This document shows positions 49,037-61,200 of a stretch of 64,000 nt of DNA, piece by piece; within the stretch, counting starts at the first letter, position 1, and the number at the start of each line of letters is the position of its first letter. Source of the DNA: an uncultured Acidobacteriota bacterium (GTDB lineage: Bacteria; Acidobacteriota; Thermoanaerobaculia; Multivoradales; SZUA-115); contig CAWDVR010000005.1 of assembly GCA_963805975.1 (NCBI GenBank), forward strand, positions 544,001-608,000, in the 5' to 3' direction. The notes under the pieces are model-generated. The model worked only from the letters and a program-made list of their open reading frames with translations. It made no database searches and was not told the origin of the DNA. A program made the position numbers and the translations under genes.

Positions 49037-50890
<1,854 letters not shown>

Positions 50891-50925
50891 TCGGCAGAAA
50901 ACCCATTCGACGGGAGGCTCCCGCC

Positions 50926-51357
50926 ATGTCGCACGACGTTCTTCGGAGGACCCTTCAACTGGCCGCGGTCGCGGCCACCCTCTGGTCTCTCGGGATCTCC
51001 CTCTTCATCGCCTTCGCTCCCAGGGTCCGGGTCGGCTACGAAGCCACGGAGAGCGGTGTCCTGAACGAAGCGGATGCCCTCTACCACGTCGAGACGTATC
51101 GAGAGCGGGGCGCAGGAGACCTCATCGCGCCGGCGATCCCCTTCCTGATGGCCGTCGGGGCCTGCCTCGCTCTCTACCGCGGCCGTCCGGGAGTGGCACT
51201 GGCGAGCTCGATGGCACTGCTGTTGTTCTCGTTTCTTACCGGCTTCTCGATCGGCTCGCGCCTCATCCCTGCGGCGCTCCTGCTCGTCGTGGTCTCACTG
51301 GTCGCTGGCGTCGCTGCCTCACATCGAGAGGTAGCCGTCGTTGACCATGGTCCTTGA
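50926..51357 (+). CDS. Hypothetical membrane protein
   Basis: GGGAGG ribosome-binding site; about four hydrophobic segments. Confidence 0.6.
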   Translation: MSHDVLRRTLQLAAVAATLWSLGISLFIAFAPRVRVGYEATESGVLNEADALYHVETYRERGAGDLIAPAIPFLMAVGACLALYRGRPGVALASSMALLLFSFLTGFSIGSRLIPAALLLVVVSLVAGVAASHREVAVVDHGP

Positions 51358-51365
51358 CCATGGTA
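51341..51365. promoter_or_regulatory. Tandem palindromic operator upstream of vapBC
   Basis: TTGACCATGGT occurs twice with a 13-bp period; the core ACCATGGT is palindromic and ends about 10 nt before the antitoxin start. Confidence 0.7.
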
Positions 51366-51375
51366 CGTTTCTGAC

Positions 51376-51615
51376 GTGGAAAGCCTGGCGATCTCGAAGT
51401 TCAAGGCCACCTGCCTCGCCGTGCTGGAGCGGGTACAGAAGACGGGCCAGCCCGTCCTGGTCACCAAGCGTGGTGTCCCGGTCGCGCAGGTCGTGCCGCC
51501 TCCCACGCCCGCAGTCTCCAAGAACAGCGCTTTTGGAGCCCTTGCGGGAACCGCATGGGAGATCGAGGACATTCTGGAACCCCTTCCGGCGGAAGACTGG
51601 GAAGCGCTGCGTTGA
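51376..51615 (+). CDS. Phd/YefM family antitoxin
   Basis: ISKFKATCLAVLERV...VTKRGVPVAQVVP and FGAL.G...DI.EP...W pattern. Confidence 0.9.
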   Translation: MESLAISKFKATCLAVLERVQKTGQPVLVTKRGVPVAQVVPPPTPAVSKNSAFGALAGTAWEIEDILEPLPAEDWEALR

Positions 51616-52007
51616 CCGGGTATCTGCTGGATACCCACATCTGGTTCTGGTACTTGACCGGCTCGCAGCGGCTTCCGGCCGAGCTCCGGGAGGTCGTTGG
51701 CTCGAGCAGCGACCGATGCTGGCTTTCTCCCATCTCGGTTTGGGAGCTGGGTCTTCTGGCAAGTCGACGGCGAGTGGGAATTGCTGGTGACTATCGAGAC
51801 TGGCTCGATCGAGCCCACCTGGTGCTGCCACTCAAAGAAGCTCATCTCAGCCGAGAGATCGCTTTGAAGAGCATCGAGTTGAACTTGCCTCACCGTGACC
51901 CGGCGGACCACTTCCTCGCCGCAACAGCCCTGGTGTTCGATCTCACCCTGCTGACCGTGGACGACAACCTCACCTCGGCAGCGTGGCTGCCGACGATGTC
52001 CGGTTGA
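51612..52007 (+). CDS. vapC: VapC PIN-domain toxin
   Basis: YLLDTHIW, SPISVWE, HRDPAD, LTVD motifs; TTG overlaps the antitoxin stop. Confidence 0.9.
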   Translation: MTGYLLDTHIWFWYLTGSQRLPAELREVVGSSSDRCWLSPISVWELGLLASRRRVGIAGDYRDWLDRAHLVLPLKEAHLSREIALKSIELNLPHRDPADHFLAATALVFDLTLLTVDDNLTSAAWLPTMSG

Positions 52008-52206
52008 GCTCGCTCTCGCCTTGCGGGTCGCCAGCCCGTGCTCCAGAAGAGCTGAAACACCGCCGTGATATCATCGCTGTGAGCCTCGTCAGGATCTCCG
52101 GCTCACGTCTTCCGCAGATGCTTCGATCCTTCCTCTTCTCTCACGACTTCAGGCAACGAAGTTGCCATCCGCCACGGATCTCACGTTCCACGGCGCAAGA
52201 GCCTGC

Positions 52207-54117
52207 ATGACCTCATACCTCCTCGACACTCGCGTTTGGTTCCTCTACCTCACCAACCCCTCCAAGCTGCCGGCGCAGCTCAAACAAGTCGTCGACGACT
52301 ACCGCGATCGATGCTGGCTGTCGCCGGCGTCGGTGCTGGAGCTCGCGGCGCAGATCGAGCGCGGCCGAGTCCGGCTCGACTCCGATCTCGGCTCCTGGCT
52401 CAAGGCCACGCGCCGGCGCCTGGCGCTCAAGGAGGCCGCGCTGACCACGGAGATCGCGGTGCGCAGCGGCAAGCTGGAGATCGCCGGCGGCGACTCGGTG
52501 GACCGCCTGCTCGCCGCCACCGCGATCGAGCTCGGACTGACTCTGGTGACGCTCGATCGCCACCTGATGACCGTCGCGGGGCTGGCGACGCTCGTCCTCT
52601 CGGAGAGGCCGGTGGAGGCCGTGCCCGAGCCGCCGGAGGCCTTGAATTTGCCGGCCGAATCGCCCGTGCAGCCGGTGTCGGTTGCCGCTCCGGTGGCCAT
52701 CGAGCCACCGCCGGTGGAGCTGGCACCGCCGACTCCCGAGCCCGCGAAGGCCCCGGAGTTTCCCCGCGCCGTGCCGCCTCTCCGGCTGGCCCGGCCGCCG
52801 CGCGAAGTCGACACTCCGCCCGAGCCCACACCGATTCGGCTCCCTGAGCCGGAACGCACGCCGGAGGAGGAAGCGGCCCACACCGCGGCGGACCTGCGAA
52901 GTGTGATCCGCGCCATCCCGCAGCATCCGGTCGCGACCACGCATGAAGATTTCTCTTCCTTGGGGCTCTCGGAGCCCATCCTGCGCTCGGTGGCGCGCAT
53001 CGGCTTCACCCACCCGACGCCGATCCAGGCGGCGGTGATCCCGGCGGCCCTGACCGGCCGCGACATCATCGGCCTCGCGCAGACGGGCTCCGGCAAGACG
53101 GCGGCCTTCTGCCTGCCGCTCGCCGAGCGCCTCACCCACGGCCGCGGAGTGCGCGGCCTGATCCTGTCGCCGACGCGCGAGATCGCGCTCCAGACCCAGG
53201 CCTTTCTCGAGGTCTTCGGCAAGGACCACGACCTCGAGACCGTGTGTCTGATCGGTGGCGTCGCCATGGGGCCGCAGATCCAGGGCCTGCGCGGCGAGCC
53301 GGACATCGTGGTGGCGACCCCCGGGCGCCTGCTCGACCACTTGCGCCGGCGCAACGTGAAGCTCGACCGCCTCGAGGAGCTGGTCTTCGACGAGGCCGAC
53401 CACATGCTGGACCTGGGCTTCATGCCCCAGATCCAGGAGATCCTCGAGTTCCTGCCGCCCAAGCGCCGGACGATGATGTTCTCGGCCACCATGCCCGAGG
53501 CGATCGAGCGGCTGGCCCGCCGCCTGATGGCCGACCCGGTGCGGGTGGACATCCTGCCCCAGGGCCGCGCGGCCGAGGGCATCAGCCACCGGCTCTACCT
53601 GGTGTCGCCGGACGACAAGAAGGCCTGCCTGCTCGCCCTCCTGCACCAGGAGCTGGGCTCGACGCTGGTCTTCATCCGCCGCAAGGTGGACGCCGAGTGG
53701 CTCTGCAAGATCCTCGGCAACGAGGGCCACCCGGTGGAGCGCATCCACTCGGACCTGTCGCAGGGCCAGCGCACGGACGCGTTGCAAGGTTTCCGCGAGG
53801 GCGAGCACCGCATCCTGGTGGCGACCGACATCGCGGCCCGCGGCCTCGACATCCCCCGCATCCAGCACATCGTCAACTTCGACCTGCCCGAGACCGTGGA
53901 GGACTACATCCACCGCGCCGGGCGCACCGCCCGCGGCACGCTGCGCGGCACGGTCTCCTCGATCGCTATCTGGCAGGACAAGGTGATGATCCGGGACATC
54001 GAGGACGCGCTGGGCAAGGAGATCCCGCGCTGCACGCTGCCGGGGGTCGAGCCCTGGCAGGAGATGAAGACCCGCCCCCGCGGCCGGCACCGGCTGCCCA
54101 TGCGCCGCCGGGTCTGA
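52207..54117 (+). CDS. VapC-like PIN domain fused to a DEAD-box RNA helicase
   Basis: N-terminal YLLDT...SVLE...DSVDR...TLD; Pro-rich linker; Q motif (GFTHPTPIQ), AQTGSGKT, PTRE, TPGRL, DEAD, SAT, ARGLD, HRAGRTAR. Confidence 0.88.
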   Translation: MTSYLLDTRVWFLYLTNPSKLPAQLKQVVDDYRDRCWLSPASVLELAAQIERGRVRLDSDLGSWLKATRRRLALKEAALTTEIAVRSGKLEIAGGDSVDRLLAATAIELGLTLVTLDRHLMTVAGLATLVLSERPVEAVPEPPEALNLPAESPVQPVSVAAPVAIEPPPVELAPPTPEPAKAPEFPRAVPPLRLARPPREVDTPPEPTPIRLPEPERTPEEEAAHTAADLRSVIRAIPQHPVATTHEDFSSLGLSEPILRSVARIGFTHPTPIQAAVIPAALTGRDIIGLAQTGSGKTAAFCLPLAERLTHGRGVRGLILSPTREIALQTQAFLEVFGKDHDLETVCLIGGVAMGPQIQGLRGEPDIVVATPGRLLDHLRRRNVKLDRLEELVFDEADHMLDLGFMPQIQEILEFLPPKRRTMMFSATMPEAIERLARRLMADPVRVDILPQGRAAEGISHRLYLVSPDDKKACLLALLHQELGSTLVFIRRKVDAEWLCKILGNEGHPVERIHSDLSQGQRTDALQGFREGEHRILVATDIAARGLDIPRIQHIVNFDLPETVEDYIHRAGRTARGTLRGTVSSIAIWQDKVMIRDIEDALGKEIPRCTLPGVEPWQEMKTRPRGRHRLPMRRRV

Positions 54118-54130
54118 GGCGCGAGGAACC

Positions 54131-54310
54131 ATGCTCGAGCCGGTCGAGGTGGCCTGCCCCTACTGCGGGGAGATCGTCGAGATCACGCTCGAGCCCGGCG
54201 AGGAAGGCTCGTTCGTCCAGGACTGCGAGGTCTGCTGCAATCCCTGGCAGGTCACCGCCCGCCGCGACCGGGACGGCGACTTGGACGTCCGGGTCGAGCG
54301 GGCCCAGTAG
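54131..54310 (+). CDS. CPXCG-motif cysteine-rich small protein (59 aa, absent from the ORF track)
   Basis: GAGG ribosome-binding site; MLEPVEVACPYCGE...QDCEVCCNPW...VERAQ. Confidence 0.85.
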   Translation: MLEPVEVACPYCGEIVEITLEPGEEGSFVQDCEVCCNPWQVTARRDRDGDLDVRVERAQ

Positions 54311-54317
54311 AAATCTT

Positions 54318-54433
54318 CCCCTCACCCTAGCCCTCTCCCCGCGAGCGGGGAGAGGGCTAGGGTGCGGTAGCCTCCGCGGGCGGGTGGTGGCGCCCTCGCC
54401 CCGCGTGAGCGGGGAGAGGGTCGGGGTGAGGGG
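54318..54433. repeat. Pair of inverted REP-like palindromic elements
   Basis: CCCTCACCCTAGCCCTCTCCCCGCgaGCGGGGAGAGGG followed by an inverted copy ending GGGGAGAGGGTCGGGGTGAGGGG, between convergent genes. Confidence 0.8.
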
Positions 54434-55072
54434 CTACCCCCGCAGCCGCACGCCCTTCAGCATCGCCAGGAACTTCTCCCGTTCGGCGCCGAGCGTGGCG
54501 TCCGGCCCCATCACCTTGAAGAACCAGGGCCCCCCCGGCCCTTCCACCACGGCGCCGAACAGGCGTCCGCCCGGCTGCGGCGCGGTCGGCCCCATTCCCA
54601 TCCCCGAAGGCTTGAGGGTGCCGGCGACGTCGACCCAGGTCACCGGAAGGCCATTGGCCTCGAAGCTCTCGCGTTGCGGCGGCGCCGCGGGCTCCACCTG
54701 ACCGATCCAGCGGTCGAGATTGGCTTCCACGCCACCGCCCTGGCCGGGGCCGAAGAAGAACACCGCGAACTCGGCCGTGCCGCCGGTCCCCTGGATCTCG
54801 CCCTGGGCGATCCGCATGCTCGAGGAGACCGGCGTCTCCTGCCAGCCGGCCGGCAGGGTGTAGACGAGCCCGGCCGAGTTGCGATCCGCGGCCGCCATGG
54901 GCGCCGGCTGGCCGTGCGACGAGAGCGGTGCCAGCTCGCCGCCGGGTCCGGGCGCGGCCGAGGGGGCTGCCGTGGCGGCTGGCGCGGCGCCGTGGTCGGG
55001 AGCCTTGCCACCGCACGCGGCGAGCGGGAGGGCGAGAAGGGCGGCGGCAAGAGCGAAGGCGAAGCGAGTCAT
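54434..55072 (-). CDS. Hypothetical lipoprotein
   Basis: LAAC lipobox; PAGW, GGGVEANLDRW..Q, GPWFFK motifs. Confidence 0.75.
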   Translation of the reverse strand: MTRFAFALAAALLALPLAACGGKAPDHGAAPAATAAPSAAPGPGGELAPLSSHGQPAPMAAADRNSAGLVYTLPAGWQETPVSSSMRIAQGEIQGTGGTAEFAVFFFGPGQGGGVEANLDRWIGQVEPAAPPQRESFEANGLPVTWVDVAGTLKPSGMGMGPTAPQPGGRLFGAVVEGPGGPWFFKVMGPDATLGAEREKFLAMLKGVRLRG

Positions 55073-55166
55073 TCGGGTCTCCTTGGGCTGGGATGGGCGG
55101 CCACAGGGTATCGAACCCCTGGCAAGGGTTCAATGCTCCTAGCTCTTGTACGGAGAGCCGCCTGCC

Positions 55167-55282
55167 GGATGGATTCCCGCTTTCGCGGGAATGACCCAGA
55201 TGTAAAACGGCACACTCAAACTCTCCGGCCCGTCTCGCGGTCGCCGTACTTTCGTCATTCCCGCGAAAGCGGGAATCCATCC
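55167..55282. repeat. Inverted pair of ATTCCC-N8-GGGAAT palindromic repeats
   Basis: GGATGGATTCCCGCTTTCGCGGGAATGAC (55167-55195) and its exact reverse complement GTCATTCCCGCGAAAGCGGGAATCCATCC (55254-55282). Confidence 0.85.
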
Positions 55283-55287
55283 AAGGC

Positions 55288-55354
55288 TTGACATCTCTCG
55301 CCGCACATGGATAATGACTGACTGTTCAGTCAACTGAACGCCCATTCAGTCATT
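55288..55354 (+). promoter_or_regulatory. Sigma-70 promoter overlapped by putative TetR operators
   Basis: TTGACA (55288) - 16 nt - GATAAT (55310); palindrome TGACTGA-ctgt-TCAGTCA and a second ACTGAA-N6-TTCAGT. Confidence 0.75.
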
Positions 55355-57321: not shown

Positions 57322-58283
57322 TCGCGCTCCGCCGTAGCTTCCTGCTCTCGGCTCTCCTGGCGGGAGCCTGCCTCGCACTCTCCGGCTGCGGCTCGAAGCC
57401 CGCGGCCACCGCCGACGTGCCGGCGGCCCCGGCCGAGCTGCCGGCCGACGTCGCCGGCGTGGCCTCGGAGCTCGAAAAGGCCTCGGCACCGGCAACGCCT
57501 GCGACCGACCCCGGCACCGCCGCTCCGGCGAAGGCGACCTCGGGCCCCATTACCGCAACTGGAGAGTTCGTCTCGCCCGTGCGCTCCGAGCTGGTGGTGC
57601 GGACCCCCGGCCGGGTGGCCGTGATCCACGCCGACGAGGGCGACCGCGTGCGCCGCGGCCAGGCGCTCCTCGCGCTCGAGACCCAGTACCTGAAGCCGGA
57701 GCTCGAGGGCGCCGAGGCGGACCTCTCCCGCGCCCGGGCGGCGCTCAACGAGGCGAAGAGCGACTTCGAGCGCAAGGAGCAGCTCCTGGCGCGAAACGCC
57801 ATCCCGCAGTCCCTCCACGACCGCTCGCGCGGCGCCTACGAGCAGGCCGGGGCCGCCGTCGCCGCGGCCGAGGCGGCGGCGGGGCTCGCCCGCCAGAAGC
57901 TCGCGGATGCCGTGCTCACCTCGCCCATCGACGGCGTGGTGGCCGAGCGCCGCGCCGACGTGGGCGAGCGCCTGGGGGACAACACCGTGGCCTACGTGCT
58001 GGTGCAGCTCTCGCCCTTGAAGCTCCGCTTCGAGCTGCCCGAGCGCTACCTGTCGCAGGTCAGGAAGGGCTCGAACGTGGTGGCGCAGGTCGATCCGTTC
58101 CCCGGCGAGGTGTTCAGCGGCCGGGTGGCGATGGTGGGGAGCGTGGTCAACGCCGAGAGCCGGGCGTTCCCGGTGGAGGCCGAGTTCGCCAACCGCGACG
58201 CCCGCCTGCGGCCGGGCCTCTTCGCCCGGATCGAGCTCGACGCCGGCGCCGGTCGACGGCCGGCAAGAGGAGACCAGCCATGA
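57318..58283 (+). CDS. RND efflux periplasmic adaptor (MFP) lipoprotein
   Basis: LSGC lipobox, [22 protein letters not shown] motifs. Confidence 0.92.
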
Positions 58284-61200
58284 ACAAGCTGGCCGAGATC
58301 TGCGTCCGGCGGCCCGTCTTCGCCACGGTGCTGATCCTGTCGCTGGTGGTGGTGGGCATCTTCTCCTACGCCCAGCTCGGAGTGGACCGCTTCCCCAACG
58401 TCGACTTCCCGCTGGTCAACGTCACGACCGTCCTGGTGGGCGCCGCGCCCGAGGAGATCGAGACCGAGATCACGGACAAGATCGAGGAGGCGGTCAACAC
58501 CATCAGCGGCATCGACCAGCTGTTCTCGGTCTCCTCCGAGGGCATCTCGGTGGTCACCGTCCGCTTCGACCTGGAGAAGGACGGCGACGTCGGCGCGCAG
58601 GAAGTGCGCGACAAGGTCAACGGCATCCTGCGCGACCTGCCGGACGATGCCGAGCCGCCGGTGATCGAGAAGATCGACACCGACGCGACGCCGGTCCTGT
58701 CGATCGCGCTCTCGGGCGCGGCGCCGGTCCGCGATCTCTACGAGTTCGCCGACAAGAACCTGCGCCGCCAGATCGAGAGCATCCTGGGCGTCGGCCAGGT
58801 CGCTGATCGTCGGCGGCCGCGCGCGGCAGATCAACGTCGTCCTGGACACCGCCAAGCTCGCCGCCGTCGACCTCACCTCGGCCGACGTGGTGCGGGCGCT
58901 GCAGAGCCAGAACGTGCAGATCCCCGGCGGCAAGGTCGAGCAGGGCGTGCGCGACCTGACGCTGCGCACCTACGGCCGCGTGACGAGGCCGCAGGAGTTC
59001 GCCGACCTCGCCGTCGCCACGCGCGGCGACTACACCGTGCGGGTGCGGGACGTGGCACGCATCGAGGACAGCCAGGCGGAGGTCGAATCGATCGCCTCGG
59101 TCAACGGCGAGCCCGCCGTGGTGCTCTTGGTGCGCAAGCAGTCCGGCACCAACACCATCGCGGTGGTCGATCGCGTCAAGGAGCGGCTCGGGACCCTCGG
59201 CCAGCAGCTTCCGCCTGGCTGGAAGATGCAGCTCACGCGCGACCAGTCGGACTACATCCTGGCCGCGGTCGAGAACGTGCAGGAGCACCTGATCCTGGGC
59301 TCGCTCTTCGCCTCGGCCGTGGTCTGGCTCTTCCTGCGCAAGCTGCGGCCGACGGTGATCGCGGCGGTGGCCATCCCGGCCTCGCTCATCGCCACCTTCG
59401 GCGCCATGGAGTACATGGGCTTCACGCTCAACGTCATCACGCTCCTCGCCCTGACGCTCGCTGTGGGCATCGTGATCGACGACGCGGTGGTAGTGCTCGA
59501 GAACATCTTCCGCTTCATGGAGGAGAAGCAGCAGCCCCCCAGGCAGGCCGCGGTCGAGGGCACGCGCGAGATCGCGCTCGCCGTGCTGGCCACCAGCCTG
59601 TCGCTGATCGCGGTCTTCCTGCCGGTCGCCTTCATGGGCGGCATCGTCGGCCGCTTCATGAACTCCTTCGGCGTCACCATGGCGTTCGCCATCGCGGTGT
59701 CGCTCCTGGTCTCGTTCACGCTGACGCCGATGATGGCCTCGCGCTGGCTGAAGCGCGAGGATCTGTCGGCTGGAGGGGCACACGGCGGGAGCTCGCGCGA
59801 GATCGGATTCTACGCCTGGATCGAGCGCCGCTACCTGAAACTCCTCGACTGGTCGCATGGCCCACCGCTGGGTGGTGGTGACGGTGATGGTGCTGGTGTT
59901 CCTTTCGACCATCCCGCTCTTCAGCGCAGCGAACAAGAACTTCCTGCCCAACGACGACGAGTCGCAGTTCTCGGTCTCGGTGCGGGCGCCGGAAGGCTCG
60001 AGCGTCACCGCGACCGAGACCATCCTGGAGTCGATCGCCACCCGCATCCGCCAGCTCCCGGGCGTCGAGGCCACCGTCATCACCATCGGCGACGACCCGC
60101 AGAAGACCCAGAACCTGGGCTCGGTCTTCGTCGATCTGCTGGCGGTGGGTGAGCGCGACCGGTCGCAGTTCGCGATCATGGACGAGGTACGCAAAGAGGT
60201 CCTGCCGCTCTACGCCAAGCTCGACCTGCGCACGCAGGTGTCGCAGATCTCGGCCATCGGCGGCGGCAACAACGCCGAGATCCAGTTCTGGATCGGCGGC
60301 CCGGACCTCGCCAAGCTCGCCGAGTACTCCGAGGTGCTGCTCGCCAAGCTCAGGGCCATTCCGGGAGCCGCCGACCCGGACAGCAACCTGGTGGTGGGCA
60401 AGCCCGAGCTCTCGGTGCGGATCGACCGCGACAAGGCGGCGGACCTCGGCGTGCGCGTGCAGGACATCGCCCTCACGCTTGAACGTCGCTGGTGGGCGGC
60501 CAGGAGGTGACCGACTTCTACGAGGGTGGCGAGCAGTACGAGGTGCACGTGCGCGCCGCCGAAGAGGACCGGGCGAGCGCCGCTTCCATCCGGCGCGCCG
60601 AGGTGCCCTCGGCCAACCTCGGCACCGTGAAGCTCGAGGACGTGGTCTCGCTCACCGAGAGCGAGGGGCCGTCGCTGGTGAACCGCATCTCCCGCCGCCG
60701 GCAGGTGCTGATCTACGCGAACATGCTGCCCGGCTACTCGTCCCAGACCATCATCGACGCGCTCCACGACGGCGCTCGGCAGCTCAAGATGCCGGCGGGC
60801 TACGCCTACGGCCTCACCGGCCGCTCCCGCGAGCAGGGCAAGGCCGCGGCGAGCTTCGCCATCGCCTTCCTGCTGTCGATCATCTTCATGTACCTGATGC
60901 TGGCGGCGCAGTTCGAGAGCTGGATCCACCCGGTGACGATCCTGCTGGCGCTGCCGATGACGGTGCCGTTCGCGCTGCTCGCGATCGTGGTGCTGGACCA
61001 GAGCGTCAACATCTTCTCGGCCCTGGGGATCCTGGTGCTGTTCGGCATCGTCAAGAAGAACGGCATCCTGCAGATCGACCACATGAACGGCTTGCGCGCC
61101 GAGGGCCATGCCGCGGCACGAGGCGATCCTCCTCGGCAACCGCGACCGGCTGCGGCCGATCCTGATGACCACGCTCGCCTTCGTGGCCGGCATGATCCCG

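Follow-up and report, generated by a model that had tools for sequence, protein, structure and literature searches.

The stretch of DNA considered here, hereafter the window, comprises 64,000 nucleotides of an uncultured Acidobacteriota bacterium (assembly GCA_963805975.1, contig CAWDVR010000005.1, positions 544,001 to 608,000 of the forward strand), and one of its genes raises an evolutionary question: How did a nuclease domain of the VapC toxin type come to lie in front of a DEAD-box RNA helicase, just behind a toxin-antitoxin pair, and what would it do there? The gene (positions 52207-54117 of the window, + strand) encodes 636 residues in which a PIN domain, a proline-rich linker, and a helicase core are joined, with Pfam matches above cut-off. 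The answer that we favour, tentatively and at somewhat less than an even chance, is that a DEAD-box helicase has captured a VapC-type PIN domain and may act as a single-chain unwind-and-cut enzyme, its nuclease tamed and independent of the neighbouring antitoxin.

The fusion recurs. Three of the eight genomes of the family possess it, namely the window's own (G000), one of the same genus (G001, 85% identical), and one of the same family (G004, 67%), as do the metagenome proteins P0005 and P0394, while two contigs of metagenome run X4 join PIN to helicase via linkers of other lengths; linker length differs also in G001 and G004. An assembly artefact can be discarded on the ground of this recurrence in other genomes and metagenome runs. 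Between G000 and G001, the ratio of nonsynonymous to synonymous substitution rates (dN/dS) is 0.23 for the PIN domain (approximate Fisher p 3e-7), 0.13 for the helicase, and 0.38 for the linker, and the fused PIN is under purifying selection. An earlier, sequence-only reading of the locus had regarded the fusion as retained, not accidental, and it was right in this, given the three genomes out of eight, the PIN dN/dS, and the independent contigs with other linker lengths. The range of the fusion is narrow: in a class sample of 401 genomes, 38 match the fused PIN (E up to 1e-17) with no further PIN fusion, and long frames in two genomes outside the family (G409 and G460) proved to be stand-alone vapBC. 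None of the best 150 PIN-like proteins among 50%-identity representatives exceeds 245 residues, and scanning metagenome contigs for the pattern of the fused PIN yielded 600 hits, none of which was confirmed as a relative. One metagenome protein, P0006, is a helicase of 416 residues that lies between G004 and G000/G001 in the trees and has no PIN in its called product, reflecting either a PIN loss or a late start call.

The fused PIN (residues 1-131, positions 52207-52599, + strand) scores 46.7 bits against PF01850 and aligns without gaps to the VapC encoded just upstream, with 61 of 131 residues identical (BLASTP E 2e-33). The sequence-only reading had put the identity at about 59 of 120 residues, where we count 58; at six shifted offsets, 8-14 residues match. 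It had also pointed out that DTH has become DTR and HRDPAD has become GGDSVD, which is correct, although both aspartates of the latter motif are nonetheless kept. According to PMC5499597, the active site of VapC/PIN ribonucleases (RNases) contains 4-5 acidic residues plus Ser/Thr. Active-site positions were assigned here by family conservation, not by structure superposition, in a set of 111 free homologues with 27 positions that are at least 90% conserved. All five conserved acidic residues (D7, E45, D96, D99, and D117) are kept in all three fused PINs, together with T8, S39, and T115, and the fused PIN thus has the acidic-plus-Ser/Thr set of these enzymes; the PIN of G004 is only 41% identical, yet its acidic set is complete. 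Conversely, H9, W13, L49, and P97, each at least 90% conserved, are lost in all three, and not one of the 111 free homologues lacks all four. The structural model of the domain (predicted local distance difference test, pLDDT, 95) has the VapC fold, with a TM score of 0.73 to Shigella VapC (3tnd), whereas comparing the PIN alignment with the sequences of solved structures was uninformative, the best E being 0.066.

Behind the PIN lies a linker of 104 residues (132-235, positions 52600-52911, + strand) which is 27% proline, variable in length, and predicted to be disordered, with pLDDT below 50 over residues 118-207; the single-chain model of the whole fusion, with a predicted TM score (pTM) of 0.55, informs only on this disorder. 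The helicase core (positions 52912-54117, + strand) clears the cut-offs of PF00270 and PF00271 by a wide margin; it begins with the motif AIPQHPV and ends in a short basic tail, with no dimerisation or RNA-binding domain behind it. Its two RecA domains contain motifs Q, I, Ia, II, III, and VI; Q274, GKT 296-298, DEAD 395-398, SAT 426-428, and H-R-x-G-R 569-573 are conserved in 40 homologues. By domain and motif content, the protein is a DEAD-box RNA helicase. The best-scoring NCBIfam models for the core are CshA, RhlE, and DbpA, but all named equivalogs (these three, SrmB, CsdA, and RhlB) stay below their cut-offs, the best match having 365.5 bits versus 646 for CshA. No C-terminal dimerisation domain of the Hera/CsdA/CshA type was found, as the CshA match stops at 371 of 429 and 22 query residues remain. 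The clade to which the helicase belongs is set apart from the genome's two other DEAD-box genes (support 100/100).

Is the fusion part of a larger unit? The sequence-only reading saw a four-gene module, in which a tandem vapC duplicate was captured by the helicase, both PINs could be under the control of the single antitoxin or VapC could heterodimerise with the fused copy, and all genes form one operon from a tandem palindromic operator to a hairpin pair. We consider this account improbable. The four genes are indeed co-directional on the + strand and each product exceeds its own Pfam cut-off: a Phd/YefM antitoxin of 79 residues (51376-51615; PF02604, 30.4 bits with a cut-off of 29.8; TIGR01552), a free VapC of 131 residues (51612-52007; PF01850), which is an ordinary member of a wide subfamily, the fusion, and a CPXCG cysteine-rich protein of 59 residues (54131-54310; PF14255). 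The first two genes overlap by 4 nt and, lying behind a palindromic operator, constitute an ordinary type II pair (51376-52007), a cassette accessory to the fusion. The tandem palindromic operator-like sites (51341-51370, + strand, with palindromes at 51343-51352 and 51356-51365) lie over the likely leaderless phd-vapC promoter and would be accessory to the fusion; a similar element is present in G001. A scan with the sigma-70 consensus found no promoter in 50800-54500, and the -35 and -10 boxes at the palindromes are read by eye. The other boundary, a pair of repetitive extragenic palindromic (REP)-like hairpins at 54318-54433 between convergent genes, is part of a repeat family scattered over the genome in about 80 clusters, which rules it out as a feature specific to the locus. 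Co-direction, tandem palindromes, and hairpin pair are all present as described, whereas a single operon, given the gap of 199 nt between vapC and the fusion, is conjecture.

This non-coding gap (52008-52206, + strand) likely holds the fusion's own promoter and leader, judging from its sequence. An extended -10-like box (52066-52074), common to G001, is absent from the calls of the promoter scan, while a leader motif at 52116-52166, including a small hairpin (52152-52166), is conserved with G001 and falls inside the aligned parts of X1 and X3 contigs. In contigs of both runs the part of the gap before about 52096 is replaced, the -10-like box included. The motif and its hairpin form a possible site of post-transcriptional control; Rfam gave seven matches, all below the gathering score and none inside the gap.

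The order of the four genes, which the sequence-only reading had proposed to follow across genomes, is common to G000 and G001, so that vapBC precedes the fusion in two of three fusion genomes. In G004, however, the fusion starts 41 nt after an ABC gene with no vapBC between, and the single related antitoxin found in that genome adjoins its own vapC on another contig. An X3 contig runs from the ABC gene to the fusion leader across about 740 letters matching neither known vapBC allele, and in an X1 contig vapC is separated from the fusion by 666 letters of other sequence. The same slot is occupied in another genome, G002, by archease and rtcB. Type II toxins are expected to have an adjacent cognate antitoxin, which the fused PIN lacks in G004 and the X3 contig; where an adjacent antitoxin exists, it has its own VapC. 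These cases lend no support to control by the one antitoxin, or to heterodimers with VapC, as the reason for the fusion. Related stand-alone Phd-VapC pairs occur in G019, G409, and G460. As to the fourth gene, of 96 loci tested, only those of G000-G004 have CPXCG following the helicase, and two of these five are PhzF fusions; it is thus linked to the helicase and is ruled out as a partner of the PIN. The synonymous divergence (dS) of vapBC between G000 and G001 (0.97 and 1.31) is about threefold the value for the helicase and ABC genes on either side (0.32 and 0.33), which suggests a history separate from theirs, though codon bias contributes.

The duplication itself was examined in a PIN tree built under a mixture model from 50 of the 93 collected rows, the bootstrap of which had not fully settled. 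The fused PINs of all three genomes fall into a single clade (95/96), whereas the pair of adjacent VapCs sides with two free VapCs (99/90); the two groups branch from an open fork inside one VapC subfamily. Trees in which the two groups were forced to be sisters are 14-17 log units worse without being rejected (approximately unbiased, AU, p 0.087 and 0.073). The best 120 free homologues of the adjacent VapC are 55-91% identical to it and have a median identity of 42% to the fused PIN, seven of them reaching at least 47%, the level of the adjacent VapC, which is among the closest relatives of the fused PIN. A common subfamily is in line with the tandem duplication that had been proposed, and sisterhood is neither favoured nor rejected; the best trees nevertheless do not join the two, and on these trees we lean against a duplication. 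Taken with the order shared by G000 and G001 and with the mycobacterial precedent of PhoAT-PhoH2 (PMC7390352; PMC4826407), these relations are what speaks for the module; the fusions without vapBC, the X1 insertion, CPXCG behind fusions lacking a PIN, the separate conserved leader, the VapC grouping, and the vapBC divergence speak against it.

A wider view of the helicase changes the question, for other domains lie where the PIN lies. Of 300 genomes of the order, 265 have a match to the helicase (E up to 1e-62), almost all of them just one, and its usual length is about 405 residues; about two thirds of its 120 best database homologues are similarly short (about 400-420 residues), whereas a low-scoring match in G038 falls outside the clade, beside paralogues. 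The names under which the helicase homologues are deposited indicate Thermoanaerobaculia within the Acidobacteriota. The upstream frame was read in 115 genomes, mostly picked for their long open frames and not a random sample. A recognisable N-terminal domain on a low-complexity linker was found in 40 of these and in three more is cut by a contig end; the count leaves out about two dozen long frames in two genera, the members read there having no domain. Beyond the PIN (3 genomes), the front ends are PhzF (2 genomes, Pfam above cut-off, aligning over 275 residues to a solved homologue), Phd (2 genomes just under cut-off, and the metagenome protein P0013 above it), an ACT_7/A9CJY8-like domain (20 of 20 readable genomes of one family, 4 by Pfam and the rest by eye), a FitA-like ribbon-helix-helix (RHH) domain (10 of 10 matched genomes of one genus, below the Pfam cut-off and in some without a score), glycerate kinase (2 genomes, G118 and G134, in which the fusion is the only DUF4147 copy found), a methyltransferase (1 genome, 73% complete, a weak case), and DinB (one metagenome protein). 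There are thus eight unrelated folds at one N-terminal position, each confined to one lineage, and the captured domains other than the PIN look complete in sequence. At least six changes between fused and unfused forms, in either direction, are required on a 47-row tree. In the window's family the helicase is fused in each of the seven genomes that have it, three different domains being involved, while short helicases exist among metagenome proteins close to that family.

Several of these loci have features of their own. Directly upstream of the PhzF::helicase of G002 lie the archease and rtcB genes (L024:8500-10349), a trio that recalls the RTCB-DDX1-archease tRNA ligase set of animals. The Phd::helicase genes of G007 (L025:7450-7520) and G005 (L026:700-770) have upstream a 9-nt direct repeat, 16 nt apart, just before a -10-like box; read by eye in two related genomes, this suggests a retained antitoxin operator and autoregulation. 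In both genomes tRNA-Sec lies just downstream of the helicase, followed by a DUF433-DUF5615 pair resembling a toxin-antitoxin system, and in G004 it lies about 1.2 kb downstream (L025:4867-5681, L026:2391-3280, and L022:5212-5311). The RHH::helicase genes of genus g86 have a 5-bp palindrome with a 4-nt centre between -35- and -10-like boxes, present in 5 of 10 loci (L082, L083, L084, L088, and L090), altered in two (L045 and L089), and absent from three. Among short helicases (L028, L031, L041, L043, L044, L047, L057, and L061) a -10-like box is seen by eye about 6-12 nt before the ATG, which suggests that their mRNAs are leaderless or nearly so.

One could generalise from this series and regard the helicase N-terminus as an evolutionary socket for at least eight folds, three of them from toxin-antitoxin cassettes, with each add-on rewiring the helicase: the PIN would make a helicase-RNase mini-degradosome, Phd and RHH, with operator-like repeats over their promoters, would give self-repression, and ACT would confer ligand sensing. 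As a whole, we regard this proposal as rather unlikely. Another idea is that the PIN does not cut at all and serves self-association, dimerising and, with the disordered linker, raising the avidity of a minimal core in place of the dimerisation domain of Hera, CshA, and CsdA. RHH, Phd, VapC, PhzF, and DinB folds are commonly homodimers, and self-association would account for the recurrence of unrelated folds in the same place, on a core that ends about 22 residues past the part matching CshA and Hera. The monomeric core of Hera unwinds 4-fold slower than the dimeric one (PMC11850223) and the disordered extensions of RhlE strongly raise unwinding (PMC11260450), results that count for this idea. 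It leaves the five kept acidic residues unexplained, however; the linkers of the helicase fusions are Pro-rich and acidic instead of basic, and most orthologues have no add-on. The glycerate kinase and methyltransferase add-ons are not known to be obligate dimers, which weakens the notion that all add-ons are. Self-association is therefore unlikely in our estimation.

The add-ons might also be tolerated passengers, a possibility to which we give a low probability. The helicase would then accept any N-terminus, and loss of a stop codon would have fixed the upstream gene for its transcription and translation signals, the PIN being kept only to fold harmlessly. The diversity of the eight folds, one lineage each, would follow from such indifference, as would the several-fold variation in linker length across fusions and the remnant of the start motif of the free helicase with which ACT fusions end; the -10-like box read by eye a few bases before the ATG of the short forms could be displaced by an upstream insertion. 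Between G000 and G004, moreover, dN/dS of the PIN rises to 0.60 (0.32 for the helicase), although dS is compressed by high GC. Yet a neutral add-on is expected to erode or to be deleted more often than is seen: the ACT fusion is in every readable genome of its family, the RHH-like one in every matched genome of its genus, and all helicase-bearing members of the window's family are fused, to one of three domains.

We return to the unwind-and-cut enzyme, which is favoured because the other captured domains appear complete and PhoH2 shows that such chemistry is workable. Also in its favour are the recurrence of the fusion, the single clade of the fused PINs with their four shared losses and five kept acidic residues, the PIN dN/dS between G000 and G001, the intact VapC fold, and the lack of an antitoxin beside the fusion in G004. 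Its history might be as follows: small cassettes enter the slot upstream of the helicase time and again; read-through from an earlier vapC in this slot into the helicase happened once, before the lineages of G004 and of the G000/G001 genus parted; and the present phd-vapC would be a separate occupant of the same slot. In operation, the core would bind structured RNA and open it locally with ATP, and the PIN, kept close to the released strand by the disordered tether, would nick it using a divalent metal. Without H9, W13, L49, and P97, the nuclease would be less toxic on its own and would depend for cutting on RNA delivered by the helicase, and for this reason no antitoxin would be needed.

Several facts weigh against this proposal. 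The retention of all five acidic residues is suggestive but not significant in comparison with other conserved positions (p 0.37 for G000 and G001, 0.10 for G004), so that metal or RNA binding without cutting fits equally well, and the four lost residues could equally signify a dead active site. The helicase tree does not resolve a grouping of G004 with G000/G001 (open fork; Shimodaira-Hasegawa-like approximate likelihood ratio test, SH-aLRT, 26), and the PIN of G004 sits on a long branch (2.1), such that its single origin with the others could be a long-branch effect. The GC content at third codon positions (GC3), which in G000 speaks for the proposal by setting fused PIN (0.91) and helicase (0.97) apart from vapBC (0.77 for the antitoxin and 0.73 for VapC), shows a weaker contrast in G001 (0.84 for vapBC and 0.89 for the fused PIN). 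Seven other folds at the same position, several without a link to RNA, argue that any selected benefit is generic, and in most genomes of the order the short helicase suffices.

How does the fusion compare with known systems? The nearest precedent is PhoH2 of mycobacteria, a PIN RNase fused to an RNA helicase (PMC7390352; PMC4826407). Like PhoH2/PhoAT, the protein has an N-terminal PIN on an ATP-dependent RNA helicase and, in G000 and G001, an antitoxin gene upstream; unlike it, the motor is of DEAD plus Helicase_C type with no hits to the PhoH family, excluding membership of PhoH2, a disordered tether of 104 residues intervenes, and the antitoxin upstream comes with a VapC of its own and is missing from G004. 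With RhlE, CshA, and DbpA it shares a complete DEAD-box core and, as in RhlE (PMC11260450), a disordered extension flanking it, but it scores below their equivalog cut-offs and its extension is N-terminal, ending in a foreign folded domain specific to the lineage. Hera, CsdA, and CshA similarly combine a core with an attached module through which one particle could contain two cores, dimerisation being hypothetical here; their C-terminal dimerisation and RNA-binding domains, described as homologous in PMC11850223, are both missing from our helicase. Finally, the fused PIN differs from type II Phd/YefM-VapC toxins in lacking a dedicated partner and in combining four changes that none of 111 free homologues combines. 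Neither a fusion of a VapC-type PIN with a DEAD-box helicase nor the series of add-ons was found in the literature searched, which mostly excludes subscription papers, and the 16 DEAD entries listed in the PIN superfamily table (PMC5499597 supplement, accessible part) are all eukaryotic NYN or XPG proteins.

A role in phage defence was also considered and rejected, as PADLOC returned no specific component: the helicase core gave generic matches only (best E 6e-19) and the other four proteins none. The frame preceding the antitoxin (50926-51357) encodes a hydrophobic product of 143 residues, its end overlapping the operator; it has no match in Pfam, NCBIfam, or PADLOC, is missing at this place in G001, and is present in an X1 contig. 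Elsewhere in the window, positions 55151-55345 contain a second family of palindromic repeats with about 149 BLAST hits in the genome, and at 58280-60510, behind TetR and two efflux-like genes, a gene resembling RND efflux pumps is spread over three successive frames, pointing to frameshifts or assembly errors.

If its PIN cuts, the fusion would be a compact, naturally occurring enzyme that both unwinds and cuts RNA, and an example of how a toxin domain was domesticated for RNA housekeeping. The series of front ends on one orthologous helicase is nevertheless more surprising and more testable than the PIN fusion, itself narrow in range. One core with eight front ends, along with unfused controls from the same order, constitutes a ready comparative panel, which can probe whether an add-on and its linker bring a DEAD-box core dimerisation, condensation, autoregulation, or nothing at all, and can also show how the DNA-binding domains of antitoxins get co-opted.

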